Positions 1 to 39,785 of a DNA stretch of 39,785 bases are shown here, one piece after another. Location: contig JBDKFI010000001.1 in NCBI GenBank assembly GCA_039798825.1, positions 1 through 39,785 on the forward strand, read 5' to 3'. The translations under genes were made by a program, and so were the position numbers. This stretch comes from Candidatus Parcubacteria bacterium. GTDB taxonomy: Bacteria > Patescibacteriota > Minisyncoccia > Phycocordibacterales > UBA5272. Position 1 is the stretch's first letter. Each line of letters begins with the position of its first letter. The notes beneath the pieces were generated by a model. That model did no database searches and was not told the DNA's origin. It saw only the letters and a list, made by a program, of their open reading frames with translations.

Positions 1-134
1 ATCATCATGATGAGCGGGGCGATAAATGCCGTCCAGGTAATGATCACTGCCACCACGACGGCGGCAGCGAATCGGAACCATTCCCAGGCCAGGTCAAGCT
101 TGGTTGCAGGCTCGGGTGCCTTGGTGTCTGTCAT
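1..134 (-). CDS. hypothetical small membrane protein, N-terminal part only (gene runs off the left edge)
   Basis: ATG at 134-132 (minus) with GGAAGGAG ending 7 nt upstream. It translates to MTDTKAPEPATKLDLAWEWFRFAAAVVVAVIITWTAFIAPLIMM.. with one hydrophobic helix. It is below the size cutoff of the ORF track and GC-richer than its neighbours. Confidence 0.45.
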   Translation of the reverse strand, partial: MTDTKAPEPATKLDLAWEWFRFAAAVVVAVIITWTAFIAPLIMM

Positions 135-193
135 CTCTGTTCTCCTTCCGCGTACCAAAGCAATGTGTTTGGGTTTTTGTGCGGCTATAGTAT

Positions 194-222
194 ATTATAA
201 TACATATTGTTGCTTTTGTCAA
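194..222 (-). promoter_or_regulatory. consensus sigma70-type promoter TTGACA-N17-TATAAT for the 1..134 gene
   Basis: Reverse complement of 217-222 is TTGACA and of 194-199 is TATAAT, with an exact 17-nt spacer. This leaves a leader of about 50 nt that carries the SD. Confidence 0.55.
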
Positions 223-429
223 TTTGCATATGTGGAGATATATAGTATTGTAAAAGTATCCCGTTACGTCTGATTATCCACCTTTGTCCGCCCAGCAGAA
301 CTGCTACACTGAAAGAAAGAAAATCCCAGTTTCGTCTGTATAACCGTATACGAGATGTGTTTGAATTATGAATTTGAATGCACTATGCATTTTCTAAAGT
401 CTATTGTCTAAGGTCTAACATCTATCCAT

Positions 430-3126
430 ATGCCTCCAAATTTCAACAATTTCACCACCAAAGCAAAAGAAGTGATTCGCCGAGCTCATGAGCTCGCTAT
501 CGAGCGAGGGCAGAACCAGGTGAGCCCGCTACATTTGATGGGAGCGCTTCTCACACAAGAGGAGTCTCTTGTGCATGCCATATTAGAGCGGTTAGATATC
601 GATGTTGTACATCTTACGGACAGTATTGTGGATGCAATCGAAGTCCCCGGAGCATCTGCTACGATGAGTCCGTCATACCAAATGTATTTGACGCCTGAGC
701 TTGCAACCACACTTGAGACATCGCTTAAAGTCGCTCAGGTACTGGGAGACGAGTTTGTTTCCACAGAACATCTCTTTCTTTCTCTTTTGGAAGCACAAGG
801 TCAGGTACGTGAAGTGCTCGCACGTTTTCGTATCGATAAAGATGCGGCGTATCACACACTTGAGGATTTGCGCTCACAGAACATCACCGAAGCACAAGGT
901 GGTAAGAAAAATAAAGCACTTGCGAAGTACACGCGGAATTTCACCGAGCTTGCACGTGCAGATAAGCTTGATCCAGTGATCGGTCGTGATACAGAAATCA
1001 TGCGTCTCATGCAGATTCTTTCTCGACGTACCAAGAACAACCCGATCTTAATCGGAGAAGCAGGTGTGGGAAAGACAGCCGTTGTCGAAGGGCTTGCCAT
1101 TCGTATGGCAAAGGGTGATGTGCCTGAGTCACTGAAAGACAAAGAGCTCGTGTCGCTTGATCTTGGCATGCTTATCGCAGGAACGAAGTTTCGTGGAGAG
1201 TTTGAAGAGCGCCTGAAGGCGATCATGAAAGAAATCGAGCGCTCAGAAGGAGGCATCATTCTTTTCATCGATGAGATCCACACCATTGTGGGCGCAGGTG
1301 CTACAGAGGGGTCAGCAGATGCTGCGAATTTACTTAAACCAGCACTTTCTCGCGGTGAGCTTCGCGCGATTGGTGCGACAACGCTCAAAGAATATCAAAA
1401 GCACATCGAAAAAGATCCAGCGCTTGCTCGACGTTTCCAACCAGTCTTTGTAGAAGAACCAACTGAGGCGGATGCACTTGCTATTTTGCGAGGACTTAAA
1501 GAAAAGTATGAACTCTTTCACGGTGTTCGCATTACAGATGATGCACTTGTCTCTTCCGTGAATCTTTCGACACGCTACATCACCTCACGATTCCTTCCAG
1601 ATAAGGCGATTGACTTGATCGATGAAGCTGCTTCATCGCTTCGCATTGCACTTGAAAACAAGCCACCAGTGCTTGATGAAGCGCATCGTAAAATCATGCG
1701 TCTTGAAATTGAAAAAGAAGCGCTCACAAAAGAAATCATGGCACACGACGACGATGACGACACAAAGACCGAGAAGCGTATTCATGATATAGAGGAAGAG
1801 ATCGCAAATATTAAAGAAAAGACCCACGAGCTTGAACTTAAGTGGAAGAACGAAAAGAAGACGCTCACTGAAATGGGTGAGATCAAGAAGTCACTTGAAT
1901 CACTTCGTGTGGAAGCAGAGAATGCAGAATTGCGTGCGGACCTCACTCGCGTTGCAGAGATTCGTTATGGTCAAATCCCAGAGCTTACACGGGAACTTAA
2001 CGAGCGCATTGAAAAGTTGAAGAAACTTCAAAAGACTCGCCGTATCTTGAAAGAAGAAATTACCGAAGAAGACATCGCACAAGTGGTTGCTCGTTGGACC
2101 GGTATCCCAGTATCGAAGATGCTTGAAGAAGAGCAAGAGAAACTGTCTCGTATGGAAGAAGAGCTTGGTAAACGTGTCATCGGTCAGCGCGAAGCAGTCG
2201 AGAAGATAAGTGGCGCTGTTCGCAGAAGCCGAGCCGGCATCAATGATCCACATCGACCGATTGGGTCATTCCTTTTCCTTGGTCCAACGGGAGTTGGTAA
2301 AACAGAGCTCACGAAAGCGCTCGCAACTTTCATGTTCAACGATGACAAGGCACTCATCAAGGTGGACATGAGTGAGTACATGGAAAAGCATAGCGTGTCG
2401 AAGCTTATTGGTTCACCTCCTGGGTATGTGGGCTATGAAGAATCAGGACAACTCACCGAGGCGGTTCGTCATCGACCGTACGCTGTTATCTTGTTTGACG
2501 AAATAGAAAAAGCGCATCCAGAAGTCTTCAATCTACTTCTTCAGGTCTTAGATGAAGGACGTCTTACGGACTCTAAAGGGCGTGTGGTGAACTTCAAAAA
2601 CACCATCATTGTCATGACATCCAATATCGGAAGTCAGTACATTCAAAAGATGGAGCAGATTGGATTTACTAATCATCTTGCAGGGTCAGAATATGTGCAG
2701 GTGAAGGAACGTGTTATGGAAGCTCTCAAAGAGTTCTTCAAGCCGGAATTCCTGAATCGTTTGGACGAGACAATCATCTTCGATGTTCTCTCACAAGAAG
2801 AGATCAAGAAAATTGTTGGTCTTCAGATCACGAGTCTCGCAACTCGTCTTGCAGAAAAAGATCTTGTGCTTGAAATGAGTGAAGAAGCTGTTGCTCACAT
2901 CGCAGAGAAGTCATTCGACGCTCACTACGGCGCTCGACCAATTAAGCGCTACATTCAAACGCATATCTTAAACAAGATCGCATCACTCATGCTTTCGAAG
3001 AAGTTTATGAAAGGTGGTATTGCTTCAGTGTTTGTTGATAAAAAAGGAGATCTTGATGTGGAGGCGAAGAAGCCGCGTAAGATTCCAAGCCCAATCACTA
3101 AAGAAGAGCTTGTCGCTAAAAAATAA
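430..3126 (+). CDS. clpB: ATP-dependent chaperone/disaggregase ClpB
   Basis: 898 aa with a Clp_N repeat region, two AAA+ modules ([15 protein letters not shown] and [15 protein letters not shown] Walker A motifs) and a long coiled-coil middle domain between them. Confidence 0.95.
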
Positions 3127-3138
3127 TATAGTAAATAA

Positions 3139-3174
3139 CGAAAAAGATAATCCCGCAAGGGGTTATCTTTTTCG
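3139..3174. terminator. bidirectional hairpin between convergent clpB and folD
   Basis: cgaaaaagataatccc (3139-3154), loop gcaa, ggggttatctttttcg (3159-3174): a 16-bp stem with one G-U pair and A/T runs on both sides. The folD stop codon (3163-3165) lies inside the right arm. Confidence 0.7.
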
Positions 3175-5088: not shown

Positions 5089-5148
5089 TATTTGTTGCTC
5101 GTTTACTATAAACTGGTATCTATTAACGAGTGACTACTAACGATTCTT

Positions 5149-6168: not shown

Positions 6169-6606
6169 CTATCGTACTCCTAAGCCGGGTTCGTGTTCCT
6201 CGGTTATCTCTTCAACATCTTCCTGAATCTCGTCGATGTCTTCTTGCATTTCTTCCACGTCTTCAGCAATGTCTTCGACATCTTCTGCGATTTCCTCCAC
6301 ATCCTCCGCAATCTCTTCAACATCTTCTTGAATTTCATCGATATCTTTCTCAACGTTTGCAAGCGCGCGTGCTTGGTGGTTGACACTCATTTGAATGAAT
6401 ATTGAGAGGTAAATAGCTTCAAGAGACACAACCGTGGTAAGCACAAGAAGCACTCGTTCTAGATCAGCGCCCAACCACACAAGTAAAAACGCGCCAAAAA
6501 ACGCACACGTATGAAGTATGACCGACCAGATGGACCCAACCCATTTTGTGACAGAAAGGGCCAAGGTTTCCAGATTTTCCACAGGAGAATCAATGGGTTT
6601 TGACAT
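6169..6606 (-). CDS. DUF1003-like 2-TM membrane protein with acidic heptad-repeat tail
   Basis: The TM pair and VVSLEAIYLSIFIQMSVNHQA resemble DUF1003. An ATG at 6606 is preferred over the GTG at 6615 because TGATATAGT sits 7 nt upstream of it. Confidence 0.6.
   Translation of the reverse strand: MSKPIDSPVENLETLALSVTKWVGSIWSVILHTCAFFGAFLLVWLGADLERVLLVLTTVVSLEAIYLSIFIQMSVNHQARALANVEKDIDEIQEDVEEIAEDVEEIAEDVEDIAEDVEEMQEDIDEIQEDVEEITEEHEPGLGVR
6196..6345 (-). repeat. seven tandem 21-nt (7-aa) coding repeats, D[IV][DE][ED][IM][AQT]E
   Basis: Protein residues 91-140 of the long ORF read DIDEIQE DVEEIAE DVEEIAE DVEDIAE DVEEMQE DIDEIQE DVEEITE. Confidence 0.85.
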
Positions 6607-7758: not shown

Positions 7759-7889
7759 AAGAAAAATATATTTCATCTACTGCGTTACGGGTCCCACGTT
7801 TTGCAGTCAACGTAGTACTACCTACATCTCCTTTAAAACTTTTCCCGTGCCTTGTATATGAAACAATTTTTCTCTTAACGAAGTTTGAT

Positions 7890-7946
7890 AGACAACCAAA
7901 GAGCGACGCCTTAGGCGTCGCTCTTTGGTTGTCTAGTCTTTTCTTG
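7890..7946 (+). terminator. intrinsic terminator, perfect 21-bp stem
   Basis: agacaaccaaagagcgacgcc (7890-7910), tta, ggcgtcgctctttggttgtct (7914-7934), followed by a T-rich tail tagtcttttctt. Confidence 0.7.
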
Positions 7947-7962: not shown

Positions 7963-10860
7963 ATGGAACCCTACATCCCTAAAAACATCGAAGGTAAGTG
8001 GCAGAAGATTTGGTCAGATACAAAGCTCTACGAGATGAACGTACACTCCGATAAAGAGAAGCTCTATGTTCTCGATATGTTTCCGTACCCTTCAGGAGAG
8101 GGGCTTCATGTTGGACATCCGAAGGGATACATCGCTACTGATATCTATTCTCGTATGAAGAAGATGTCAGGCTATGAAGTGCTTCACCCTATGGGGTGGG
8201 ATGCGTTTGGTCTTCCTGCAGAACAGTTTGCACTTAAAAACAAAGTTCACCCGCGCGTCGCTGTAGAGCGAAACATTGCGCGATTTAAGGAGCAGCTTTC
8301 GATTATTGGATTTAATTATGATTGGACCAAGGAGGTCAACACCACGGACCCTGAGTTTTACAAGTGGACGCAATGGATTTTTAAACAGATGTGGAAGAAG
8401 GGACTTGCCTACGAGAGTTATGAGCCGATTAATTGGTGTCCATCGTGCAAAACAGGTCTTGCAAACGAAGATCTAGAAGGGGACGCGTGTGAGCGTTGTG
8501 GTACCAAGGTGGAAAAGAAGCCACTTCGTCAGTGGGTGCTTAAGATTACGGATTATGCAGACCGTATGATTGCTGATCTCGACAAACTTGATTGGCCAGA
8601 AGGAGTCAAACTTGCGCAGAAGAATTGGATTGGAAAAAGTGAAGGTTCCGAAATCAGGTTTAATCTATGTGTCACAGGAGTAGCAGATGGAACGTATTTT
8701 GTTGATGTGTTCACGACGCGCGCAGATACGCTCTTGGGCGCTACGTTTATCGCTATTTCTGCAGAGCTTGCACAAACGTGGATATCGATGGGCTGGAAAC
8801 CTTCTGAAAAGATCACGTCATTTATACAGACGACACTTGAAGACGAGAAAAACAGAAGCGTTGATTTCAAAACAGAGCTTTTAAAGGATGGCGTTGATAC
8901 AGAAGTGTTGGCGATTAATCCACTTACTCAAGAAAAGATTCCTGTGTATGTTGCTAATTATGTTATTTCTGGCTATGGCACAGGTGCACTCATGGGTGTT
9001 CCGGCTCACGACGAGCGTGACTACGCATTTGCAAAGCAGCACAATCTTCCTGTTAAGGAAGTTGTTCGTCCCTATGTGATCGATCATGTGAATGTGCCCC
9101 GTCCTGATAAGCCAACTAAGGTGCGACGCAACGTGCATGCAATCGTGTATGATCCTGCGACAGATACATATCTCATTCTTCGCAACTCAGTTCATCACTG
9201 GGACACGGTAGTGATTGGAGGTGTCGAAGAAGGTGAAGATCTAGTTGAGGCTGCGAAGCGTGAGCTACGAGAAGAAACCGGATATACCGACGTCACCTTT
9301 AAACGAATTTTGGGCAATCCTGTACAAGCTGGTTACTTTGCGCCGCACAAGGATGAAAACAGAGTCGCTATCGCCTCTGCCGTGTACTTCGAACTTGCGA
9401 GCGATGCTCGAGTGGAAATTCCAACTGATGGCGAAAATGAAGGAAATGAAGTTCTGTGGGTAGACGCATCAGAATTTGTTCCAGGAAAAATGATTAATTC
9501 AGAACTTGGACATTGGCTTGTGCGTCTGAAAGTACAAGACGATATCCCTTACACAGGAGAAGGTATTCTTGTTAATTCAGGAGCGTATGACAACCTTGCA
9601 TCCGAAGAAGCGAGAAAGAAAATAACAGAAGATGCAAAGGGAAAGCTGCTCTCACAATACCGTCTTAAGGATTGGGTGTTTGCGCGTCAGCGATATTGGG
9701 GTGAGCCATTTCCTATTGTGTTTGATGAGCATCATGTTGCCCACGTAGTTGCAGACAGTGAACTTCCTGTGAAGCTTCCTCAAGTTGAAGCATATGAACC
9801 AACTGGCACAGGTGAGAGCCCGCTTGCTGCTATTTCGGAATGGGTGAACGTGACGGGGTTCTTAAACGAAGATGGGGAATTTGTGAGTTGCGATCCATCA
9901 GATCCGAAAGCAAAGCATTTTACACGAGAGACAAATACCATGCCCCAATGGGCGGGATCTTCATGGTACTATTTACGCTTTGCGGATCCGAAAAATAATA
10001 CGACACTTATTGATCCTTCCCTTGATAAGAAATGGCAACCGGTTGATGTATATGTCGGTGGAGATCATGCGACACGTCACCTTATCTATGCGCGATTTTG
10101 GCATAAATTTTTGTACGATATCGGTGTCGTGTCCTATGATGAACCATTTAAACGACTTGAGTTCTTAGGATTTATTTTGGCAGAAGATGGACGCAAAATG
10201 AGTAAGCGATTAGGGAATGTCATCAATCCAGACGACGTGGTAGCGATCTACGGTGCAGACACGCTTCGTGTGTATGAAATGTTTATGGCACCGTTTGAAC
10301 AAACAGTTGCATGGGATACAAAAAGTATTGTGGGTGTGGAGCGCTTTTTGGAACGCGTGTGGAAGTTGCAAGCCAAGGTGCGTGATGAAAAAGATAGCTC
10401 AGATGCACTCACAGTACTTCATAAAACGATTAAGAAAGTAGGGGAAGACATCGATGCGTTTAAGTTCAACACCGCTGTTTCTTCAATGATGATTTGTCTG
10501 AATGCAGGAGAGGCTGCTCCGCATGTTTCTTCGTACTGGTACAGCACATTCATCACCCTCCTTGCGCCATTTGCACCACATATCTCAGAAGAGCTTTGGC
10601 ACACACTTGGCGAACGTGGTTCAGTGCACGAGCAGCCCTGGCCTTCATTTGATGAGACGTTACTTGTAGACACTACGGCAACTATTGCAATTCAAATAGG
10701 GGGCAAACTTCGCGAGACTATTACCGTTCCTCGAGATACTGCTGAAATGGGGGTCTTAGACGAGGTAAAAAAGACACAAAGTTACCAGAAGTATGTCGGG
10801 TCAGCGACCCCAAAGAAGGTGATTTTCGTCCCAAATAAGTTGATAAATATAGTGATTTGA
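7963..10860 (+). CDS. leuS: leucyl-tRNA synthetase with an inserted Nudix domain
   Basis: 965 aa with HVGHP (HIGH), KMSKR (KMSKS), CP1 editing motifs TTRADT and GTGALMGVPAHDERD, and RLKDWVFARQRYWGEPFP. Residues ~385-525 carry the Nudix box GGVEEGEDLVEAAKRELREETGY. Confidence 0.95.
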   Translation: MEPYIPKNIEGKWQKIWSDTKLYEMNVHSDKEKLYVLDMFPYPSGEGLHVGHPKGYIATDIYSRMKKMSGYEVLHPMGWDAFGLPAEQFALKNKVHPRVAVERNIARFKEQLSIIGFNYDWTKEVNTTDPEFYKWTQWIFKQMWKKGLAYESYEPINWCPSCKTGLANEDLEGDACERCGTKVEKKPLRQWVLKITDYADRMIADLDKLDWPEGVKLAQKNWIGKSEGSEIRFNLCVTGVADGTYFVDVFTTRADTLLGATFIAISAELAQTWISMGWKPSEKITSFIQTTLEDEKNRSVDFKTELLKDGVDTEVLAINPLTQEKIPVYVANYVISGYGTGALMGVPAHDERDYAFAKQHNLPVKEVVRPYVIDHVNVPRPDKPTKVRRNVHAIVYDPATDTYLILRNSVHHWDTVVIGGVEEGEDLVEAAKRELREETGYTDVTFKRILGNPVQAGYFAPHKDENRVAIASAVYFELASDARVEIPTDGENEGNEVLWVDASEFVPGKMINSELGHWLVRLKVQDDIPYTGEGILVNSGAYDNLASEEARKKITEDAKGKLLSQYRLKDWVFARQRYWGEPFPIVFDEHHVAHVVADSELPVKLPQVEAYEPTGTGESPLAAISEWVNVTGFLNEDGEFVSCDPSDPKAKHFTRETNTMPQWAGSSWYYLRFADPKNNTTLIDPSLDKKWQPVDVYVGGDHATRHLIYARFWHKFLYDIGVVSYDEPFKRLEFLGFILAEDGRKMSKRLGNVINPDDVVAIYGADTLRVYEMFMAPFEQTVAWDTKSIVGVERFLERVWKLQAKVRDEKDSSDALTVLHKTIKKVGEDIDAFKFNTAVSSMMICLNAGEAAPHVSSYWYSTFITLLAPFAPHISEELWHTLGERGSVHEQPWPSFDETLLVDTTATIAIQIGGKLRETITVPRDTAEMGVLDEVKKTQSYQKYVGSATPKKVIFVPNKLINIVI

Positions 10861-10906: not shown

Positions 10907-11935
10907 ATGGCAGGCATCACCTTCAAACCAAAGGCAGTTTCCAAGAAACTCCTCACCACACTTAACCCTCGCACACGCGAGATTGTTGTTAGTCGCTACG
11001 GACTTGAGAAAGAAAACCGTATGACGCTCGAGGCTATCGGAAAGACATACGACATTACTCGTGAGCGTGTTCGACAGATTGAGAATTTCGCTCTTGCTTC
11101 TATCAAGAAATCAAAAGAATACAAAGAACACGCGTTCGTATTCGATGAGCTTAAAGCTGTCGTGAAGGAGCTTGGTTCTGTCGTGTCTGAAGAGCAGCTC
11201 ATGCGCCATGTTTCTAAGGACCCTATCGTTCAAAATCACATAAACCTCTACCTTGCTCTCGGTGATGAGTTCAAGAAGCACAAGGAAGACGATCATTTCC
11301 ATGCTCACTTCACTATCGACGACAAGCATGCAACATCTGTTCGTAATGCGCTCCACAAGTTGTATGAATCTATCGACGAAGAGGATCTCGTGAGTGAAGA
11401 AGAAATCTTCAATCGATTCATGGGACACCTAAGCGAAGTGATCGGAGAGTTTAAAGATAATAAAGAAATCATCTATCGATACCTCGCACTTTCTAAGGTT
11501 ATCGGTAAGAATCAGCTTTCTGAATGGGGTCGCACATCATCTCCACATGTCAAAGCCCGCGGTATTAAGGATTACGCATACCTCATTATGCGTCGTGCTG
11601 GTCGTCCTATGCACTTCAAGGAAGTTGCAACTGAGATCAATAAAACATTTGGTAAGCGAGCGCATGTTGCGACATGTCACAATGAACTCATCAAAGATCC
11701 TCGTTTTGTACTTGTAGGTCGCGGTATGTACGGTCTTAAGGATTGGGGGCACACAGGAGGCGTTGTACGCGATGTCATCACTGAAGTTCTCAAAGAATCT
11801 GGTCGTCCGCTTCCAAAGGATGAAATCATTAAGCGAGTGCTTGCGAAGCGCATTGTTAAACCAAATACCGTTCTCGTAAATCTTCAGAACGCAAAGTTCT
11901 TCCGAAAGGTTGCAGGAGAATACACACTAGCGTAA
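10907..11935 (+). CDS. sigma-70 region-4-like HTH plus HARE-HTH (RpoE-delta-like) domain protein
   Basis: The N-terminus REIVVSRYGLEKENRMTLEAIGKTYDITRERVRQIENFALASIKK matches sigma region 4. The C-terminal half has two winged-HTH-like units (DYAYLIMRRAGRPMHFKEVATEI.., VITEVLKESGRPLPKDEIIKRV..). Confidence 0.7.
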   Translation: MAGITFKPKAVSKKLLTTLNPRTREIVVSRYGLEKENRMTLEAIGKTYDITRERVRQIENFALASIKKSKEYKEHAFVFDELKAVVKELGSVVSEEQLMRHVSKDPIVQNHINLYLALGDEFKKHKEDDHFHAHFTIDDKHATSVRNALHKLYESIDEEDLVSEEEIFNRFMGHLSEVIGEFKDNKEIIYRYLALSKVIGKNQLSEWGRTSSPHVKARGIKDYAYLIMRRAGRPMHFKEVATEINKTFGKRAHVATCHNELIKDPRFVLVGRGMYGLKDWGHTGGVVRDVITEVLKESGRPLPKDEIIKRVLAKRIVKPNTVLVNLQNAKFFRKVAGEYTLA

Positions 11936-17949: not shown

Positions 17950-17965
17950 AGTATAGTTGAGGAAT

Positions 17966-17995
17966 AAAAAAGCCGGATGTCTTTCGACATCCGGC
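17966..17995 (-). terminator. intrinsic terminator of the minus-strand orphan gene (also ends bcp transcription)
   Basis: gccggatgtc (17972-17981), tttc, gacatccggc (17986-17995), with an A-run at 17966-17971 that is a U-tract on the minus strand. Confidence 0.7.
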
Positions 17996-18012
17996 CGTTT
18001 GCGTGTCGCCCT

Positions 18013-18363
18013 TCACGCCGCCTTCAGGAGTGGCGGGCTTGTGCACCGCGAGGTGCGGAAGGTGACGCTTTCCAGGTCGAGTTTCTTCGACATCGCCATA
18101 CCAAGCAGTTTGACGCTCATGCTGCGGTCCGTGGGGACGTAACAGGCATCTCCCACCACGAGCGCCACATCGTAGTTCTGGTTGTTCACCCTCACTTCGA
18201 TCGTATCACTCGGCTCGATGGGCACAAACTCGTTGGTCTGACCCACACCCCGCATCGTCACATGCAGGCACGCATCACCCGATTGTCGGGCGGACTCGAT
18301 CGCCGACCTCAGGAGGTCGCGGTAGATCTCTGCCTGTGTCGGGCCCTGCTCTTCTTCTTTCAT
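18013..18363 (-). CDS. orphan hypothetical protein (116 aa), GC-rich cassette
   Basis: GAGGAG lies 8 nt upstream of the ATG and a terminator lies about 18 nt after the stop. The protein-like sequence reads MKEEEQGPTQAEIYRDLLRSAIESARQ.. The opposite-strand ORF is Arg/His-rich junk. Confidence 0.55.
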   Translation of the reverse strand: MKEEEQGPTQAEIYRDLLRSAIESARQSGDACLHVTMRGVGQTNEFVPIEPSDTIEVRVNNQNYDVALVVGDACYVPTDRSMSVKLLGMAMSKKLDLESVTFRTSRCTSPPLLKAA

Positions 18364-18483
18364 TGAAAACGCTCCTCAAGAACTACGGAAATGTGGCGCA
18401 GTTGCTACGCCACGACTTGTTGTGCTGTTTGGTACGAGGGGGTCTTTTGTATACAAGTGCCCCGTCCCTTACCGCACCTCGTA

Positions 18484-18512
18484 ATCCTATACCTCTACAT
18501 GACCTTTGTAAA
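18484..18512 (-). promoter_or_regulatory. candidate promoter TTTACA-N17-TAGGAT for the orphan gene
   Basis: Reverse complement of 18507-18512 is TTTACA and of 18484-18489 is TAGGAT. This implies a ~110-nt leader containing the hairpin gtggcg..cgccac. Confidence 0.4.
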
Positions 18513-21666: not shown

Positions 21667-21691
21667 AAAAGAGCGCGCAAGCGCTCTTTTT
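21667..21691. terminator. bidirectional intrinsic terminator after atpB
   Basis: aaaagagcgc, gcaa, gcgctcttttt. Confidence 0.8.
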
Positions 21692-21713: not shown

Positions 21714-21941
21714 TCAGAGGGCGTCTTGACCGAGAGCGATGCACTCAGCAAGCGCAAACATCCTTTTCACTGGTATGGGTGGCTCCTCTCTCCACCCATC
21801 CTTCGGATATGGCGTGAGTTGCACGCCTTGTGGTTCAGTGATGACCTTGTAGCTGAAATCCCTTTCCGAGATACTCAGGCATGTGCCGTTTGGAAGGACG
21901 GCAGAGTAGTTGTCGCCGTCCTTGAAAATGATGAGTCCCAT
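21714..21941 (-). CDS. orphan hypothetical protein (75 aa), antisense cassette between atpB and atpE
   Basis: ATG at 21941 with GGAG 8 nt upstream, and its own promoter at 21974-22001. The sequence begins MGLIIFKDGDNYSAVLPNGT.. The upstream part of the 115-aa track ORF is AT-rich and contains the promoter. Confidence 0.5.
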   Translation of the reverse strand: MGLIIFKDGDNYSAVLPNGTCLSISERDFSYKVITEPQGVQLTPYPKDGWREEPPIPVKRMFALAECIALGQDAL

Positions 21942-21973
21942 TTCGTTTTCTCCGTGAACTGTATTCGTTTCAG

Positions 21974-22001
21974 AGTCTAACGTGTATGCGGTATAAGTCA
22001 A
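21974..22001 (-). promoter_or_regulatory. promoter TTGACT-N16-TAGACT
   Basis: Reverse complement of 21996-22001 is TTGACT and of 21974-21979 is TAGACT. Confidence 0.5.
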
Positions 22002-22159
22002 TGAAGATAGTACATTATTTATCCCATGCAAACTGGTCGGATGTGTGCTATGCTTATGCACAAAGCCTTACTTAGGCGATTTTTATTGAAACGTTGCAAC
22101 TAGTATGTAGTGCATGTGTTTTGCATTCAACTAGCAACTACTAACTAATAAACTAATTT

Positions 22160-22952: not shown

Positions 22953-23303
22953 ATGACTCTCTCTAGAAAGATCGCACACACCGTTATAGAACAAGAAGTT
23001 GGAAGTGAGACACTTCTTGCGACACTTTCCAAGTACAACTTAGAGTCTTTACTCCCAAGTATTGTAGCTGAGATGAAAAAGCTTGTACGTATGGAGGATG
23101 GAAGTGCAGCGCTTCATGTCGAGTCGCCATTTCCTCTCGATGAGAGAGCGTTAGCACACATTGTGTCTCTAGCGGAAGCACAAGGTGCACCTATTATCAC
23201 ATCACACAACGAAGAACTTCTCGCCGGTTTCAAGGCTCGTTATAAAGGAATGTTGTACGATGGGTCTGCCGAACGAATCGTACACGCACTTACAAGAAAC
23301 TAG
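22953..23303 (+). CDS. atpH: F0F1 ATP synthase subunit delta (OSCP), unusually short
   Basis: 116 aa. The C-terminus LLAGFKARYKGMLYDGSAERIVHAL matches the delta C-terminal LIGG..V..G....DGS motif, and the gene sits between atpF and atpA. Confidence 0.65.
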   Translation: MTLSRKIAHTVIEQEVGSETLLATLSKYNLESLLPSIVAEMKKLVRMEDGSAALHVESPFPLDERALAHIVSLAEAQGAPIITSHNEELLAGFKARYKGMLYDGSAERIVHALTRN

Positions 23304-23331
23304 AAACAGGAAACTAACAACCATTACAATC

Positions 23332-25760: not shown

Positions 25761-27215
<1,455 letters not shown>

Positions 27216-27819: not shown

Positions 27820-27847
27820 TTGACAATTCTTGAGAATTTGATATCAT
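27820..27847 (+). promoter_or_regulatory. promoter TTGACA-N16-TATCAT for the ncRNA candidate
   Basis: TTGACA at 27820-27825 and TATCAT at 27842-27847. Confidence 0.55.
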
Positions 27848-27852
27848 TAGTA

Positions 27853-28045
27853 GTGACCAGAGGTTTGGTCGGGGTCCACCCGTCCTGTAATCTCTAGTAG
27901 ATCTTGATGTTTGAGGAATGGTCAGCCTTAATAAACGTCAAGATAGGAACGTACGATCCGAAATTTCGTACGGGAGATTTGCCTCCTTAAATGGCAAACC
28001 GTCAAGGACCTGACGCGAGCCCCCAGCATGTGCTGGGGGCTTTTT
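27853..28045 (+). ncRNA. ~190-nt structured non-coding RNA candidate of unknown class
   Basis: No ORF; it lies between a good promoter and a strong terminator (gcccccag catg ctgggggc ttttt, 28019-28045). Internal hairpins are 27855-59/27866-70, 27901-09/27936-44 (9 bp), 27950-56/27966-72 (7 bp) and 28000-04/28011-15. Confidence 0.45.
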
Positions 28046-29424: not shown

Positions 29425-29433
29425 TGGTAGGAT
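29425..29433 (+). promoter_or_regulatory. extended -10 box TGGTAGGAT for the small basic ORF
   Basis: It lies 42 nt before ATG 29476, and the leader carries AGGAGG. Confidence 0.45.
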
Positions 29434-29475
29434 TGAGGTGAAATTCTTTCCCAACCACTCCTACAGGAGGTTCCC

Positions 29476-29664
29476 ATGGCCAAAGCAACCACCGTCGGAA
29501 ACGGCGATTTGAGCAAGTCCCTGCGCCAAAAAGGTGCCAAGCCGGAAGACGCACACGGCTTGAAGGACATCGTCCGCACGTCGATGTCACAGACACCGCC
29601 TCATCGACGCACCATGAAGTCGAGCTTCACTGTCGGCGCACCGGTTCCTCCGAGGAGGTGGTGA
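29476..29664 (+). CDS. orphan small basic protein (62 aa)
   Basis: AGGAGG lies 5 nt before the ATG and a perfect terminator lies 21 nt after the stop. The sequence is MAKATTVGNGDLSKSLRQKGAKPEDAHGLKDIVRTSMSQTPPHRRTMKSSFTVGAPVPPRRW (12 K/R against 4 D/E). Confidence 0.45.
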   Translation: MAKATTVGNGDLSKSLRQKGAKPEDAHGLKDIVRTSMSQTPPHRRTMKSSFTVGAPVPPRRW

Positions 29665-29685: not shown

Positions 29686-29720
29686 AATGCACCGTCCTCG
29701 GTAGAGGACGGTGCATTTTT
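29686..29720 (+). terminator. intrinsic terminator, 14-bp perfect stem
   Basis: aatgcaccgtcctc, ggta, gaggacggtgcatt, ttt. Confidence 0.8.
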
Positions 29721-32042: not shown

Positions 32043-32075
32043 AAAATGAAAAGGCCAGCGACGAAAGTCGCTGGC
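32041..32075 (-). terminator. intrinsic terminator of the minus-strand orphan gene
   Basis: gccagcgac (32054-62), gaaa, gtcgctggc (32067-75), with an A-rich run at 32041-32053 that is a U-tract on the minus strand. Confidence 0.7.
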
Positions 32076-32093: not shown

Positions 32094-32312
32094 TTACAGG
32101 TTGACAGCACCGTTGGCGCCGTACTGCATGCAGGTGGTGACAACCATCTGGTCGCCCAGGATGATGAGCACCGGCATTGGGGCTGCCGGCGGCTGGCTCA
32201 AGTTGGCGTGGGCGAGGTTGCCCGTGAACAGGACCTCGATGTTGTCCTTCTGGAGAGCGGTCATGCACGCGTCCCGTTCCTCGGGAGTGGAAAAGAAAAC
32301 CAAGAACTTCAT
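32094..32312 (-). CDS. orphan hypothetical protein (72 aa), GC-rich cassette
   Basis: The sequence MKFLVFFSTPEERDACMTALQKDNIEVLFTG.. looks protein-like. It has its own TTGACA promoter, a weak AAAGG SD and its own terminator. The overlapping frames give junk translations. Confidence 0.5.
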   Translation of the reverse strand: MKFLVFFSTPEERDACMTALQKDNIEVLFTGNLAHANLSQPPAAPMPVLIILGDQMVVTTCMQYGANGAVNL

Positions 32313-32357
32313 GATGGGCCTTTCTGCCGGGTGCTCGCAGTATTTGCGAGTGAAACA

Positions 32358-32386
32358 ACACTACAACTTATTTATTATTTTGTCAA
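32358..32386 (-). promoter_or_regulatory. promoter TTGACA-N17-TAGTGT
   Basis: Reverse complement of 32381-32386 is TTGACA and of 32358-32363 is TAGTGT. Confidence 0.5.
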
Positions 32387-32424
32387 AATGTTTTTGTATC
32401 CAACAGTCCCCAATCCTTCACGTT

Positions 32425-32447
32425 AAAAAGCGCCCGCGGAAGCGGGT
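32425..32447 (-). terminator. terminator-like hairpin oriented for the minus strand
   Basis: aaaaag c gcccgc ggaa gcgggt on the plus strand. On the minus strand this reads as a stem followed by gcttttt. Confidence 0.4.
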
Positions 32448-32548
32448 AGCTGAGATAGAGTGCATTTCTTAGCAAAGAAATGACACAGCTTTTTAAGGTG
32501 GAGGATTAAAAAGAAAAAGTGTTTATTTTAAATAAAACATGCGTTTCG

Positions 32549-32557
32549 TGGTATAGT
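32549..32557 (+). promoter_or_regulatory. extended -10 box TGGTATAGT, 11 nt before the rnr ATG
   Basis: TGG at 32549-32551, TATAGT at 32552-32557, ATG at 32569. Confidence 0.5.
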
Positions 32558-32568
32558 TAAAAGAATAT

Positions 32569-34532: not shown

Positions 34533-34541
34533 TGGTAGAAT
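34533..34541 (+). promoter_or_regulatory. extended -10 box TGGTAGAAT for the orphan gene 34611
   Basis: It lies 69 nt before the ATG, and the leader ends with AAGGGAG. Confidence 0.4.
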
Positions 34542-34610
34542 AGAGTTCTAGAGAGTAGTGCGCTTGGTACTATTCAATAATCTCTCGTTAAAAAGAAAGG
34601 GAGCGTGAAA

Positions 34611-34961
34611 ATGAAACGCGATCTTGAGCTTTGTTACCCGCAAGAAGTGCAGCAGAACGTAGGGTACTTGCTCCAACTCGACAGAGGAAGGTACATGGTT
34701 CGATTGACTGGTGGAACAGTCATCTATGAGGCCACAGATTGGTCTGTGACACAGGAACAAGATCATGTGGTGGTGGTCTTGCATGATGCACATGTCATGG
34801 ATTCCCAAGGGCGTCGTTTCGTGACCGAGATGACTCGGGTTAGCCGGACACCACACATCCCCATCTACATGGGGAAGAAAATGAGTGTGTTGTGGAGTGG
34901 CGGTGGGTACTATGTCCCTCTGCCGCGAGCATGCTCACTCCTCTTCCTTCTGTGTGCGTAA
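34611..34961 (+). CDS. orphan hypothetical protein (116 aa)
   Basis: The GGGAG core of AAGGGAG ends 8 nt before ATG 34611 and a terminator follows the stop. The sequence begins MKRDLELCYPQEVQQNVGYLLQLDRGRYMV.. and has a hydrophobic C-terminus LLFLLCA. Confidence 0.5.
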   Translation: MKRDLELCYPQEVQQNVGYLLQLDRGRYMVRLTGGTVIYEATDWSVTQEQDHVVVVLHDAHVMDSQGRRFVTEMTRVSRTPHIPIYMGKKMSVLWSGGGYYVPLPRACSLLFLLCA

Positions 34962-34964
34962 CGA

Positions 34965-34992
34965 AAGCCTCCCTGCGGGGGCTTTTCTTTTT
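34965..34992 (+). terminator. intrinsic terminator
   Basis: aagcctccc, tgc, gggggctt, followed by ttctttttc. Confidence 0.65.
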
Positions 34993-35002: not shown

Positions 35003-35011
35003 TGGTAGAAT
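35003..35011 (+). promoter_or_regulatory. extended -10 box TGGTAGAAT, 7 nt before the rpsP ATG 35019
   Basis: Spacer gggggac. The ORF-track start at 35010 would lie inside the -10 box. Confidence 0.55.
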
Positions 35012-35018: not shown

Positions 35019-35321
35019 ATGTTAAAAATCAGACTACAACGTACAGGACGCAAGAACGACCCACATTTTCGTCTTATCGTCACTGAAAGCACGCTTAAGC
35101 CAAAGACTTCACAGTTTGCAGAAATTGTAGGAACCTACAACGTAAAAGCTGGTATCTTTGAAGCGAAAGCTGACCGTATCAAGCACTGGATGTCCAATGG
35201 CGCGCAAGTGACACCAACAGTACACAACCTCCTCATTTCAAAGGGAGTGCTCGAAGGAAAGAAGCTTAACGTACTTCCAAAGAAGACAGTTCAAGCAAAG
35301 AAGGAAGCGAAAGCTGCATAA
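35019..35321 (+). CDS. rpsP: 30S ribosomal protein S16
   Basis: MLKIRLQRTGRKNDPHFRLIV is the canonical S16 N-terminus; the protein is 100 aa. Confidence 0.93.
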   Translation: MLKIRLQRTGRKNDPHFRLIVTESTLKPKTSQFAEIVGTYNVKAGIFEAKADRIKHWMSNGAQVTPTVHNLLISKGVLEGKKLNVLPKKTVQAKKEAKAA

Positions 35322-37084: not shown

Positions 37085-37092
37085 GTGCCCAC

Positions 37093-38145
37093 ATGAAAAA
37101 GATCTTCTTGTTTCTTGTTGTGTGTGGGGTTATCGTCTACGGGATATGTTGGCGATTAAGCGAGATGGGATGGACGATCTTTGACACAGACACTCCAACT
37201 GCTGCAGTTCAAACACAAACCTCGGAATTATCTGTAGCAACGTCGACTCCGCTTCTTTTTGTGGGAGACATCATGCTCGGGCGTTATGTAGAAAAGTTTG
37301 CACACGAGGAAGGAAACGACTTGAGATCATTTGAAATGATGCGAGACTTTCTCAAAGCGCACATCACCATCGCCAACCTGGAAGGTCCGATACCAGATAC
37401 TCATACTCCAACGCCTGCGAATGGGTTTTCGTTTTCCTTTTCTTCATCCACTCCGCACGTTTTGCGAGAGGGTGGTGTTACTGCTGTGTCACTTGCAAAC
37501 AACCACATGTTTGACCACGGAACATCAGGATACGAAGCAACCAAGCAAGCACTAGCACGTGGTGATGTGAAGCACTTCGGTGGCTATGCGCCGACTACGG
37601 ACGACTACTTCGAGACGAAACTGGGCACAACAACGGTGATTGTGTATGGCATCACCATGATCGCAACTGGATGGGACGAAGAACAAGCTCTCGCGATCAC
37701 CAAGACGTTGCGTGCTGAGCATCCATCTGCGTATCTGGTTGCATTTCTTCACTGGGGTGATGAGTATGTGACACAGAACACGTATCAGCGTGCGTTTGCG
37801 CACAGGCTTGTCGATGAGGGTGTGGACACTATCATCGGATCGCATCCACATGTTGTGCAAGGTATTGAGATGTACAAGAATGTACCCATCTTCTACTCAC
37901 TTGGTAATTTTATTTTTGATCAGTATTGGCGAAGCGACTTGGAGGATGGTGTACTTGTGCAGATAGAACAAGAACAAGGATCCTCTGCATATACGCTCAT
38001 CCCCATCAGGTCATCTCGTTCTGTTCCATACATAGCAGAAGGACAAGATAGGACACGCATCCTTGCGCGCATTGCTGAACAATCAGATGAGAATTTGAAA
38101 GCGGATATTTTGGAAGGAACAATCAGTATTTCTTTGCATGATTGA
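37093..38145 (+). CDS. CapA/PgsA-family metallophosphatase-like protein (poly-gamma-glutamate synthesis family)
   Basis: 350 aa with an N-terminal TM helix and the motifs GDIMLGR, ANLEGP, LANNHMFDHG, LHWGDEY, IIGSHPHVVQG and YSLGNFIFDQ. Confidence 0.85.
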   Translation: MKKIFLFLVVCGVIVYGICWRLSEMGWTIFDTDTPTAAVQTQTSELSVATSTPLLFVGDIMLGRYVEKFAHEEGNDLRSFEMMRDFLKAHITIANLEGPIPDTHTPTPANGFSFSFSSSTPHVLREGGVTAVSLANNHMFDHGTSGYEATKQALARGDVKHFGGYAPTTDDYFETKLGTTTVIVYGITMIATGWDEEQALAITKTLRAEHPSAYLVAFLHWGDEYVTQNTYQRAFAHRLVDEGVDTIIGSHPHVVQGIEMYKNVPIFYSLGNFIFDQYWRSDLEDGVLVQIEQEQGSSAYTLIPIRSSRSVPYIAEGQDRTRILARIAEQSDENLKADILEGTISISLHD

Positions 38146-38241
38146 TGCGAACGTCGCATTTGCGAGTTGTTGTAAAAAGGAGTACAGTACTGGTTGATTG
38201 TTCGTAAACCAACGCCCCGAACATGGGGAGAGAGGCGTATC

Positions 38242-38931
38242 ATGAGCATTATGCCAAAAAGGGTGAGCCGCGATCAGCAGGCAGGGGTGAGGTATGACCG
38301 CCTCCCCAAGTACCCAGAAAAGTGCAAGACGTGGGAGGAGTTCGTGGAGTTCATGGCGAAGAAGCCACAACTCGCCCCGTTTGCGTTCCGTGTCATGGAG
38401 CAACCGTATACGCACGGTATACCAACTTCCTTTTCTTTCGGGTCAGATAGCGTGCTGCTTGACCCGATTTTCTTCGGACTCTGTCGGAGAGGCGAAGGTA
38501 GCACGCTTGGCTCGCACTGCATGTTCATGAATGATCGGCGGGAGACCTTCTTTCTCGACTCGATTAGTCACGACATCACCGGTCTCGGGCCGGACCTCTT
38601 CTCGTGGGATGGATCAGGCAAGCATGGCAAGATCTCCGCGCTCTACCTTTCGCCGGACCAGGTGATGGGGCAGCTTCACGGATGGATGAAGTATCAGTTG
38701 AGCGGGGACGAGGTCATGAGCTCCGAGCGCGCCCGCGAACAGCTCAAAGCCAAGTACTGGCTGAAGGTGTTCCTCGCAGTGTTTCTGCATGTGCCATCAG
38801 AAGTTCAAGCCCTCGTGACGGAGCTCGAAGGGAAGCTCGCAAAGTATCGTGAGCAGAAAACCAAAGAGCTCGACGTGGTGCGCCAGCAGATCGTGGCCCT
38901 GGAAGAAGAGATCAGGATCTTCTCGCAGTAG
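38242..38931 (+). CDS. orphan hypothetical protein (229 aa) with C-terminal coiled coil, GC-rich island
   Basis: GGGGAGAGAGG lies 6 nt before ATG 38242. I recognise no known motif. The C-terminal heptad-like text reads VQALVTELEGKLAKYREQKTKELDVVRQQIVALEEEIRIF. Confidence 0.55.
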   Translation: MSIMPKRVSRDQQAGVRYDRLPKYPEKCKTWEEFVEFMAKKPQLAPFAFRVMEQPYTHGIPTSFSFGSDSVLLDPIFFGLCRRGEGSTLGSHCMFMNDRRETFFLDSISHDITGLGPDLFSWDGSGKHGKISALYLSPDQVMGQLHGWMKYQLSGDEVMSSERAREQLKAKYWLKVFLAVFLHVPSEVQALVTELEGKLAKYREQKTKELDVVRQQIVALEEEIRIFSQ

Positions 38932-38952
38932 ATCCAAGGCTCCGCACGTGAG

Positions 38953-38974
38953 GCCGGATTCGTCCGGCTTTTTT
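38953..38974 (+). terminator. intrinsic terminator
   Basis: gccgga, ttcg, tccggc, tttttt. Confidence 0.8.
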
Positions 38975-39021
38975 GTTGGACAAAGAAGGTGTTTTTGGGT
39001 AGTGTGAGGTTTGTTCTGTTC

Positions 39022-39030
39022 TGGTAGGAT
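39022..39030 (+). promoter_or_regulatory. extended -10 box TGGTAGGAT
   Basis: It lies 16 nt before ATG 39047, and GGGAGGG lies in between. Confidence 0.4.
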
Positions 39031-39046
39031 TATGTCTGGGAGGGTT

Positions 39047-39313
39047 ATGCAAGAAAGTCTCAAAACACCTCTGATTTCTGGTGTGTATGCATGTGTTTCG
39101 TGGCAAAGAATGTCCGCTGTTGAAGTCCATCAGCTCTATACCGACTACAACAACAATTTGTCGTGGATGAGAAGAACGGCGCCAGTTTCTTTGATGACTA
39201 TCGAGTGGGCACTCGATGCACTCGTCAAGGAGAAGTTGGTTTGCAAAGAGCTCACCATCTTTACAGATCAAGCTCTCACCGAAGATACGTATGTGTACTT
39301 CAAGTCACCATGA
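39047..39313 (+). CDS. orphan hypothetical protein (88 aa)
   Basis: GGGAGGG lies 3 nt before ATG 39047 (short spacing, so the start is uncertain; the track start is 39011). I recognise no known motif. Confidence 0.4.
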   Translation: MQESLKTPLISGVYACVSWQRMSAVEVHQLYTDYNNNLSWMRRTAPVSLMTIEWALDALVKEKLVCKELTIFTDQALTEDTYVYFKSP

Positions 39314-39344
39314 GTCCCTCCACGAGAGGGGCTTTTTTATACAA

Positions 39345-39376
39345 ATAAAAAAAGTGCGCAAGCTTTACTTGCGCAC
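39345..39376 (-). terminator. intrinsic terminator of the minus-strand Nudix gene
   Basis: gtgcgcaag (39354-62), cttta, cttgcgcac (39368-76), preceded on the plus strand by an A-run that is a U-tract on the minus strand. Confidence 0.75.
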
Positions 39377-39389
39377 CACGACCCCTTGT

Positions 39390-39782
39390 TCATTCGAAGA
39401 TCTTTGAAAGACTTCTCTCCAACAGTTTTGCGTGCACGTTGAAGATGAAGTAGTCTCCGACTCGGATGTTCTTCCTCGCTGCTTCAAGGACATCTCTCGC
39501 ATCGAAGAGCTTTGCGACGATTTCTTCGTCGCCGTCGATTGTCATGGGCACGAAGTCTTGAAGTGATGTGACTTCACCCACGAACACGTATTGAGTGTGC
39601 GTGTCGCTCGGGTTGACTCGGCTCGGTTTCAGGATGGGTTCCAATACGGGCCGAGGTTCGTCGACCCACAAGCCAGTCTCTTCGCGAAGTTCTCGCACTG
39701 CAGCAGCAGAGAGCTCTTCACCTTCTTTCACACCACCACCGGGTATTCTCCATAGCGGTCTTCTGTAGTTCAGTGATGCCAC
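39390..39782 (-). CDS. Nudix hydrolase, 5'-truncated by the window edge
   Basis: The Nudix box is GGVKEGEELSAAAVRELREETGL. Only about 13 residues precede the PGGG, so the N-terminal strands must lie beyond 39785. Confidence 0.8.
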   Translation of the reverse strand: MASLNYRRPLWRIPGGGVKEGEELSAAAVRELREETGLWVDEPRPVLEPILKPSRVNPSDTHTQYVFVGEVTSLQDFVPMTIDGDEEIVAKLFDARDVLEAARKNIRVGDYFIFNVHAKLLERSLSKIFE

Positions 39783-39785
39783 GAG

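Follow-up and report, generated by a model that had tools for sequence, protein, structure and literature searches.

Why should a few small genes of no recognisable family carry strong Shine-Dalgarno (SD) sequences in a chromosome whose conserved genes lack them? The question is raised by a 39,785-nt chromosome segment of a Candidatus Parcubacteria bacterium, a member of the candidate phyla radiation (CPR), which spans the entire contig JBDKFI010000001.1 of GenBank assembly GCA_039798825.1 and is referred to here as the window. A preliminary description of the window had listed eight orphan open reading frames (ORFs) between conserved genes, all of which are present at the listed coordinates and are designated O1 to O8. 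The explanation that we favor, with somewhat more confidence than doubt, is that the core genome is leaderless and SD-less and that the orphans are accessory cassettes, self-contained and SD-led, which occupy fixed slots in it and whose contents are exchanged within the gene pool of the clade.

Two classes of translation start

SD strength was scored as the energy of the duplex between positions -20 to -3 of a start and 5'-ACCUCCUUU-3', a sequence that may not be the clade's own 16S tail, and a free energy (dG) of -6 kcal/mol or lower was taken as the threshold. The start codons of folD (3990), msrA (4159), atpA (23332), bcp (17479), smc (29814), rpsP (35019) and PGA_cap (37093) were corrected before scoring. 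The median energy was -8.7 kcal/mol at the eight orphan starts and -0.45 kcal/mol at the 38 core starts of the window (Mann-Whitney p = 1.2e-5), in agreement with the contrast drawn in the preliminary description. As also described there, seven of the eight orphans possess an SD (at or below -6 kcal/mol), that of O5 being weak. When the 30 nt upstream of the orphans were shuffled, the real SDs outperformed the shuffled sequences (combined p = 1.5e-6), showing that the signal is not merely local G-richness. Among 1,264 candidate starts (ORFs of at least 50 aa), orphan starts ranked near the top and true core starts did not, with the exception of rpsP. The only core starts in the window to reach -6 kcal/mol were those of holin4, leuS and rpsP, and all three have their run of G next to or within a TAnnnT -10 box; this had been argued earlier for leuS and rpsP and applies equally to holin4. 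In rpsP, the GGGGGA sits between the -10 box and the ATG. In the roughly 140 related loci examined, 1.5% of 613 orthologous core starts reached the threshold (median +0.3 kcal/mol), and 25 of 32 slot-gene starts did so.

The two classes also differ in composition. GC content at third codon positions (GC3) was 0.43 +/- 0.06 for the core genes, compared with 0.52-0.85 (mean 0.68) for the orphans (p = 1e-7), and the codons CGG, AGG, CCC, GCC and CTG, avoided in core genes, are used in the orphans. O8 is the exception, having core-like GC. The eight GC counts of 60-nt lines made by hand in the preliminary description were exact, and its caution that the GC contrast is uneven was justified, as plain GC in 150-nt windows separates the classes only partly. 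Judged by their codon usage, the orphans look like products of a different genomic background. Translational selection for C-ending codons was considered as the cause of the raised GC3 and rejected, since G-ending and rare codons (CGG, AGG, CTG) rise too. An automatic survey of GC3-rich ORFs across the clade showed an association between SD strength and GC3 (rho = -0.24, p = 2e-23), which is of supporting value only, the survey being contaminated by antisense and off-frame ORFs.

The orphans share a common anatomy, consisting of a promoter, a 5' untranslated region (5'UTR) of 10-115 nt, a GGAG-type SD, an ORF and an intrinsic terminator. A promoter-like element precedes every orphan, as had been claimed. 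Terminator hairpins had been reported after six of the seven complete orphans; the hairpins are there, and the number is too low, for all seven are followed by a hairpin with a T-run.

Core genes appear to initiate without SD pairing

Analysis of the 613 orthologous core starts showed that -10-like boxes cluster so as to end 6-10 nt upstream of the ATG (388 at these spacings vs. approximately 10 per position elsewhere). The pile-up was found at first cistrons, where its rate was 98% for rnr, 93% for rpsP, 90% for atpB and 100% for fur and bcp, and was only 0-9% at internal cistrons (atpE through atpC, and DUF167). The rnr element of the window, TGGTATAGT, occupies positions 32549-32557. The position of these boxes suggests that transcription of first cistrons starts at -10 or extended -10 promoters and yields leaderless mRNAs.

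Internal cistrons are preceded by spacers of 10% G and 39% A in which T is favored at position -1, and in 223 orthologous internal leaders the 5-mers ACTAA, AACTA and CTAAC were enriched 18-19 fold. AACTAAC-like words were seen before internal cistrons at 22130-22159, 23299-23331, 25784-25823 and 5120-5148 of the window and in relatives, and the leader AACTAACAACCAT is common to atpA and atpD. A spacer of this kind could act as an unstructured enhancer or as a non-SD ribosome-binding motif. No SD was found at atpE through atpC, msrB, ogt, mltG or DUF167, nor at the leadered core genes smc, clpB and KH. The anti-SD motif has been reported in only 48% of Parcubacteria 16S genes (PMC9297842), so low SD usage in Parcubacteria is not new by itself.

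Most orphans are protein-coding genes

The orphans are real genes, and coding was demonstrated for most of them. Sequence differences between homologues of O2, O3 and O7 are biased to the third codon position, with ratios of nonsynonymous to synonymous divergence (dN/dS) below 1, and GC periodicity supports the coding status of O2, O5, O6 and O7. The coding signature on which the preliminary description had made its proposal depend was thus present in most orphans, by periodicity or by homologues; the part that did not hold concerns O4, whose periodicity was not significant (p = 0.12). O3 and O7 evolve rapidly, with dN of about 0.5, some eight times that of neighboring core genes (about 0.06).

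These results bear on the notion that the orphans are not genes at all and are instead GC-rich, non-coding spacers or RNAs with chance ORFs and G-runs. Such a reading could draw on the periodicity of O4, on the low-confidence AlphaFold models of O2 and O7, and on a neighboring promoter-terminator unit (27820-28045) that carries no ORF. We regard it as very improbable in view of the protein homologues with third-position-biased divergence found for O2, O3, O6, O7 and O8, the GC periodicity of O5 (p = 2e-8) and O7 (p = 1e-13), and the SD placement that beat upstream shuffles, and these three lines of evidence already refute it for most orphans.

Family and structure searches yielded little. Pfam and PHROGs searches with all orphans at E <= 1 returned nothing meaningful, and Rfam searches with orphan leaders and bodies (at gathering thresholds and also at E <= 1) returned no family. 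A profile of the O6 family gave only chance matches to PDB sequences (E about 0.9). AlphaFold2 models of O2 and O7 were poor, with predicted local distance difference test scores (pLDDT) of 51 and 46, respectively, and too low for a fold search. A tblastn search with O7 against 50,697 phage records produced no match, and no relative of O7 was found in IMG/VR.

The unit at 27820-28045 (plus strand) consists of a near-consensus promoter (TTGACA-16-TG-TATCAT), approximately 190 nt without a convincing ORF, and a strong terminator with an 11-bp stem. Its RNA folds far better than shuffled sequences (z = -6.1) and matches no Rfam family, and the unit is missing from the 115-bp atpC-uppP gap of the related locus L051. 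It is a candidate small RNA in a cassette-like slot.

Slots are conserved and their contents are replaced

The gene order of the window is common to 43 genome loci and 80 metagenome loci, all from Patescibacteria metagenome-assembled genomes labelled Nomurabacteria, Paceibacterota, Parcubacteria or, loosely, Saccharibacteria. L046 is a close relative, in which smc is 90% and rnr 97% identical to the window. L145, a 10,068-bp Logan contig (SRR22388113), has the same gene order at 54% GC, with core GC3 of 0.52-0.70 and an rnr that is 81% identical. Typical GC3 across the clade is approximately 0.11-0.68, an unusually wide range for synteny so conserved. Exact look-ups for further close relatives with O2, the annotated O7 product, DUF167, rpsP and KH returned nothing or the same strain only.

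Replacement is best seen between smc and rnr, where the window has O5 and L046 has, on the same strand, a GC-rich, 264-aa pyrE (orotate phosphoribosyltransferase). The window retains the first ~20 nt of pyrE, with the ATG changed to ATA. Identity between the window and L046 is 92% over the 197 nt that precede rnr (32372-32568), and the cassette bodies do not align; in the flanking genes, 50-64% of synonymous sites differ. Besides the promoter of rnr and two hairpins, the 197-nt region contains an attenuator-like hairpin with a T-run, which precedes pyrE in L046 and no gene in the window. Copies of pyrE were found in L046 (2613-3407, minus strand), L039, L030 and L041, and the nearest named relatives of this type of enzyme are in Proteobacteria, at about 45% identity for the L046 copy. 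Copies are 40-45% identical to that of L046, and in the three that were measured (L046, L039 and L030) GC3 exceeds that of the host by 0.18-0.41.

In the bcp-SIMPL slot, the window, L054 and L052 have kept the terminator as well as roughly 150 nt of leader and promoter. O2 fills the slot in the window and L054; L052 and L051 carry an unrelated ORF, O2', instead. In the rnr-rpsP slot, the promoter TGGTAGAAT is kept and the content downstream differs between the window and L046. Some relatives have slots of only 26-81 bp. Diverged homologues of O3, O5, O6, O7 and O8 occupy the same slots in relatives. On the suggestion in the preliminary description that comparison of gene order might expose the cassettes as lineage-specific insertions, the picture is mixed: the contents of the O2 and O5 slots are replaced in close relatives and some slots are empty, and O3, O6, O7 and O8 have diverged homologues in place.

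No integrase or transposase is encoded among the window genes, and a repeat search across the window revealed no attC-like sites, target duplications, inverted repeats or other shared cassette ends. Homologous recombination through the conserved flanks would be the simplest mechanism of slot exchange.

The SD is maintained independently of GC3

A NUDIX hydrolase gene (nudix) at the right end of the window (39390-39785, minus strand; GC3 0.57), of which only the 3' part is included, its start lying beyond the window end, is a further member of the SD-led class. GGAG-type SDs at proper spacing are kept in orthologues of nudix, O8 (five genomes), the h117 family of L046 (three) and O3 (four). The nudix orthologues have AAGGAGG (L046), CAGGAG (L007) and TAGGAG (L036); those of O8 (L006, L021, L002, L019 and L024; 31-41% identity) all have GGAGG-type SDs; and those of O3 keep an SD-like AAGGA or AAGGAG. 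Retention holds down to 31-40% protein identity and includes genomes of 32-38% GC. The GC3 excess, by comparison, is only about 0 to +0.05 in distant nudix, O8 and h117 orthologues. In L145, the GC3 contrast is gone and the slot genes are still SD-led, rpsP and trmD appearing leaderless and KH and DUF167 lacking an SD. Because the SD is conserved in orthologues with host-like GC3, it is a maintained signal and not a donor relic, and it is presumably a functional feature of the leadered accessory class. Its maintenance in the slot genes also suggests that a usable anti-SD persists in the clade.

One reading offered in the preliminary description is that the genes were acquired repeatedly from a donor, for instance an episymbiont's host, that is GC-richer and uses SDs. 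In its direct form, in which the genes came from an unrelated GC-rich organism (host or phage) and both the SD and the raised GC3 are relics of that donor, we consider it improbable. Codon usage in the orphans is typical of a genome of approximately 55-65% GC, the nearest named relatives of the L046 pyrE are, as noted above, proteobacterial, and O5, O2 and O1 combine the highest GC3 with the narrowest distribution. Against this, no homologue of O7 or O2 outside the Parcubacteria clade was found among 5.8 billion proteins, and O6 has about eight relatives among 1.8 billion representatives; O7 is absent from the phage records and IMG/VR, and PHROGs and Pfam were empty. Moreover, homologues occupy the same slots in related Parcubacteria, the SD is retained where orthologue GC3 is already host-like, and no integrase, transposase or flanking repeats were found in the window. 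A host donor of the orphans is thus unsupported. What survives of the donor reading is the slot replacement, the foreign codons and the low synonymous divergence of O2 and nudix; the SD as a relic does not. The existence of L145, a GC-rich relative with the same gene order, makes donors inside the clade more likely than the host.

The proportion of synonymous differences (pS) was 0.34 in O2 vs. 0.61-0.72 in its flanks, and 0.38 in nudix vs. 0.50-0.64 in its flanks. These low values fit recent exchange, and the GC3 excess in the window probably reflects recent import from GC-richer members of the clade rather than from a host.

A second rival, also raised in outline by the preliminary description, holds that the small genes keep their SDs so that the availability of the anti-SD switches their translation, the raised GC3 being selected on their mRNAs. 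By analogy, it has a precedent in the Bacteroidia, including Flavobacterium, where bS21 keeps the anti-SD out of reach and rpsU, which has an SD, responds when ribosomes lack bS21 (PMC9976891, PMC7797042, PMC13000453). The SD is kept over long divergence and independently of GC, and the SD contrast persists in the GC-rich L145, as such a class would have it; the GC3 offset near +0.15 that the families of O6 and O3 retain from lineage to lineage, despite saturated synonymous divergence (dS) in the core, and the reduced pS in O2 and nudix, which is expected under codon constraint, also agree with it. We nevertheless find it doubtful. The genes concerned (a NUDIX hydrolase, pyrE, a membrane peptide and unrelated ORFans) have no functional coherence, the slots are empty or hold unrelated genes in close relatives, which is unusual for a regulon, and distant nudix, O8 and h117 orthologues show no GC3 excess.

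According to the explanation based on accessory cassettes, then, the native core genes would start translation without SD pairing, the first cistrons as leaderless mRNAs from -10 promoters ending 6-10 nt before the ATG and the internal cistrons behind short, A/C-rich, G-poor, ACUAAC-rich spacers. Eight or nine small accessory genes sit in fixed intergenic slots, each as a self-contained unit. Their mRNAs have leaders, and we propose that they therefore need an SD and keep it; the ribosome of the clade would still have a usable anti-SD. The slot genes are restricted to the clade and evolve about eight times faster than the core, and slot contents are swapped between relatives, most simply by homologous recombination via conserved flanks. 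The GC3 excess of the window would stem from recent import from a GC-richer pool, most likely the GC-rich members of a clade with this wide range of GC3 (0.11-0.68).

Several observations weigh against this explanation. The core genes smc, clpB and KH are leadered yet SD-less, so that a leader does not imply an SD as a general rule here, and the O6 orthologue in L141 looks leaderless and has no SD. Leaderless status and transcription start positions are read from the positions of motifs. If the 16S rRNA of the clade is among those without an anti-SD motif, given that only 48% of Parcubacteria have one (PMC9297842), the SDs cannot work as proposed. The low pS of O2 and nudix could be due to codon constraint instead of recent transfer. 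No donor allele was found, and the L145 homologues are only 21-30% identical to O5 and O6. Finally, GC3 remains in excess by approximately +0.15 in the families of O6 and O3 in several lineages despite near-saturated core dS. Such persistence is not what simple import followed by drift predicts, and selection or GC-biased recombination at the slots may play a part.

We put forward one extension tentatively, as an unlikely variant: in a clade that has otherwise given up SD-dependent initiation, SD pairing would be retained solely to translate the fast-turnover accessory genes of the slots, so that core and flexible genomes would differ in how translation begins. Changes in anti-SD availability, or in the balance of leaderless initiation by 70S ribosomes and leadered initiation by 30S subunits, could switch between the two modes, and GC3 would be held high by something else, namely selection on the slot-gene mRNAs or GC-biased recombination at the slots.

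Individual cassettes

O1 (1-134, minus strand) is the 5' part of a small ORF that leaves the window, with a predicted transmembrane helix, GC3 of 0.73 and a GC periodicity of p = 0.05. Its signals (142-222) comprise the promoter TTGACA-17-TATAAT (194-222), a 5'UTR of about 50 nt and the SD GGAAGGAG (142-149; dG -9.4 kcal/mol).

O2 is a 116-aa ORF (18013-18363, minus strand; GC3 0.76; GC periodicity p = 3e-6). Its leader and promoter region (18364-18512) combines TTTACA-17-TAGGAT (18484-18512) with a structured 5'UTR some 110 nt long and the SD GAGGAG (18372-18377), and its terminator (17964-17996) is an 11-bp hairpin with a T-run that is bidirectional, serving also after bcp, and is kept in L052 and L054. 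O2 and its L054 homologue (73% identity) differ at 15, 15 and 32 sites per codon position in the minus frame and at 36, 22 and 25 in the plus frame, which indicates that the minus strand is the right one and that the plus-strand genes annotated in public assemblies are probably wrong. Those plus-strand calls lie at 387-821 of L054, 1798-2256 of L052 and 5904-6299 of L051, and the O2' ORFs of L052 and L051, which have SD-like motifs, are also on the minus strand. A search of 5.8 billion proteins with O2 returned only O2 itself; the L054 homologue was not found in the database.

O3 (21714-21941, minus strand), a 75-aa ORF with GC3 of 0.62, lies inside the atp operon on the opposite strand. It has the promoter TTGACT-16-TAGACT (21974-22001) and the SD GGAG (21950-21953) within its signal region (21950-22001), and a bidirectional terminator hairpin (21667-21691) separates the 3' end of O3 from atpB. 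Homologues were found in the same slot, between atpB and atpE, in L052 and L056 (52% identity), L054 (49%) and L055, L057, L058 and L060 (34%), and thus in every close relative fetched via identical atpE (100% identical in all); their differences are biased to the third codon position.

O4 is a 62-aa ORF (29476-29664, plus strand; GC3 0.70) whose coding status is the weakest of the orphan set, although the corresponding slot of L046 holds a partial homologue (60% over 35 aa). Its signals (29425-29470) are an extended -10 element, TGGTAGGAT (29425-29433), and the SD AGGAGG (29465-29470; dG -11.0 kcal/mol). The SD can pair with a CUCCU five nt upstream in a small hairpin (29455-29470). The terminator, a 14-bp hairpin with a T-run (29689-29720), lies upstream of smc, which starts at 29814, so O4 does not overlap smc.

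O5 (32094-32312, minus strand) is a 72-aa ORF with GC3 of 0.85, followed by a 9-bp hairpin with a T-run (32049-32075). The region upstream (32319-32401) includes a weak SD, GAAAGG (32319-32324), the promoter TTGACA-17-TAGTGT (32358-32386) and the 5' relic of pyrE (32380-32401). L145 has a distant homologue, g72, which shares the slot and strand of O5 (21% identity over 66 aa, E = 4e-5).

O6 (34611-34961, plus strand; 116 aa; GC3 0.57) is one of a few related proteins that have the motifs DSQGR and PLPRACSL in common. Upstream (34533-34603) are the promoter TGGTAGAAT (34533-34541), in a stretch matching L046 at 29/32 positions, some 60 nt of 5'UTR and the SD AAGGGAG (34597-34603). Its terminator (34963-34991) is followed by another copy of TGGTAGAAT (35003-35011), the promoter of rpsP, and by the apparently leaderless rpsP start at 35019. 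A phmmer search gave nine matches among the 1.8 billion representatives, and two O6 relatives that were looked up both lie in clade genomes. Homologues in the same rnr-rpsP slot are 36% (L141), 30% (L145) and 26% (L063) identical.

O7 is the largest orphan (38242-38931, plus strand; 229 aa; GC3 0.73) and has a C-terminal coiled coil. Its signal region (38160-38235) has the promoter TTGCGA-17-TACAGT (38160-38188) and the SD GGGGAGAGAGG (38225-38235), which lies partly in a hairpin, overlapping the 3' arm of a CCCC/GGGG stem. On the predicted pairings, the SDs of O4 and O7 may be partly masked. The terminator is a hairpin with a T-run (38952-38974). The sole homologue of O7 among 5.8 billion proteins is 45% identical and occupies the same PGA_cap-[O7]-[small ORF]-nudix slot, in L046-L050; dN is 0.50, compared with about 0.06 in neighboring genes, and the differences per codon position number 96, 78 and 129. 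The O8 unit (39022-39338, plus strand) consists of TGGTAGGAT (39022-39030), the SD GGGAGGG (39038-39044), an 88-aa ORF (39047-39313; GC3 0.52) and a terminator (39314-39338).

The backbone of the window

Pfam recognised 38 ordinary backbone genes, from clpB to PGA_cap (430-38145), which form the SD-less core described above, and the window also encodes three tRNAs. Their order is clpB, folD, msrA/B, a HIT protein, ogt, holin-like, DUF948, DUF5671 (a CPR-typical family), leuS, a sigma-r4/HARE-HTH protein, mltG, an RNase T-like exonuclease, mnmA, fur, bcp, SIMPL, DsbA-like, ispA, the atpBEFHAGDC operon, uppP, PAP2, smc, rnr, rpsP, KH, trmD, DUF167 and PGA_cap.

Some backbone features are unusual. 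In leuS (7963-10860), a NUDIX domain is inserted after the editing domain (aa 388-508; insert at approximately 9124-9486). Over 66 nt (9216-9281), the insert is 73% complementary to positions 39673-39738 of the stand-alone nudix gene on the opposite strand, a resemblance that suggests paralogy of the two. A perfect 23-nt palindrome (7889-7935) directly precedes the leuS promoter and may be a bidirectional terminator or an operator; its weak, sub-threshold Rfam matches to the small RNA SpF25 on both strands are probably due to chance. The DUF948 coiled-coil gene contains, at 6197-6347 (minus strand), six tandem 21-nt (7-aa) repeats. The protein encoded at 10907-11935 has an N-terminal sigma-70 region 4 and a HARE-HTH domain and has no region 2, which is odd for a sigma-like factor.

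Comparison with known systems

The closest parallel for the start signals is GeneMarkS-2 group C (Actinobacteria, Deinococcus), in which first cistrons are leaderless and other genes have an SD (PMC6028130). As in that group, a Pribnow box lies 6-10 nt before first-in-operon starts and a second, SD-type start model applies to leadered genes. Unlike in group C, internal operon genes and several leadered core genes are SD-less here, and the SD is nearly confined to small accessory genes. The text describing group C does not mention CPR, to which the present lineage belongs (PMC6028130).

With the Bacteroidia, the lineage shares SD depletion, A-rich and G-poor upstream regions and a small number of strong-SD genes (PMC7797042, PMC9976891, PMC13000453), as judged here from related loci. 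In Bacteroidia of this kind, a canonical anti-SD is present in the 16S rRNA and is hidden by bS21, bS18 and bS6. First cistrons in the Bacteroidia are, in contrast, not leaderless, and their SD gene is rpsU, which has an autoregulatory role; the SD-bearing genes described here are diverse, fast-evolving accessory ORFans. No rpsU was found among the SD-led genes of the window and related loci, which are instead a NUDIX hydrolase, pyrE and ORFans.

Some Parcubacteria have no anti-SD motif (CCUCCU) at the 3' end of their 16S rRNA and lack uL1, and no SD helix is predicted (Tsurumaki 2022, PMC9297842). Those bacteria belong to the same phylum-level group as the present lineage, whose core genes are likewise SD-less; the difference is that conserved SDs stand here before one class of genes. 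These conserved slot-gene SDs argue that the anti-SD has probably been retained in this clade.

Phage morons are reportedly promoter-gene-terminator units inserted between conserved genes. The cassettes resemble them in being self-contained units of atypical composition between genes that are adjacent in relatives. Unlike the setting of morons, the backbone here is cellular (ATP synthase, smc, rnr, rpsP), with no phage genes or PHROG matches, and the units are GC-richer than the backbone. Integron cassettes differ in that no attC-type sites and no intI were found in the window and the present cassettes carry their own promoters.

Atypical or horizontally acquired ORFans are said to be short, fast-evolving, narrowly distributed and compositionally deviant, and all of these descriptions fit the orphans, O8 being an exception in composition. 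Atypical genes are usually AT-richer than their host (PMC6028130), whereas the orphans are GC-richer, sit in fixed slots and use an initiation signal different from that of the core. Homologues closer than those of the clade, which would mark a donor of acquired genes, were not found outside it in the searches with O2, O6 and O7; only the L046 pyrE has distant relatives of proteobacterial type. Our literature search found no description for CPR bacteria of this combination of group C leaderlessness, atypical genes and moron-like units.

Implications

Annotation of CPR genomes is directly affected, since a gene caller with a single start model will mis-start leaderless core genes and can choose the wrong strand in GC-rich slots, as was seen for the O2 slot in public assemblies. 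As a result of such miscalls, protein databases lack part of the small accessory proteome of CPR bacteria, an example being the O2 homologue of L054. Fixed slots with exchangeable contents should also be good markers for recombination and gene flow among CPR populations. In this bacterium with its tiny genome, expression seems to be organized differently for core genes and for flexible genes. If our explanation is true, it would account, within a very large and still uncultured group of bacteria, for the persistence of the anti-SD in lineages whose genes are mostly without SDs, where it would serve the flexible gene pool.

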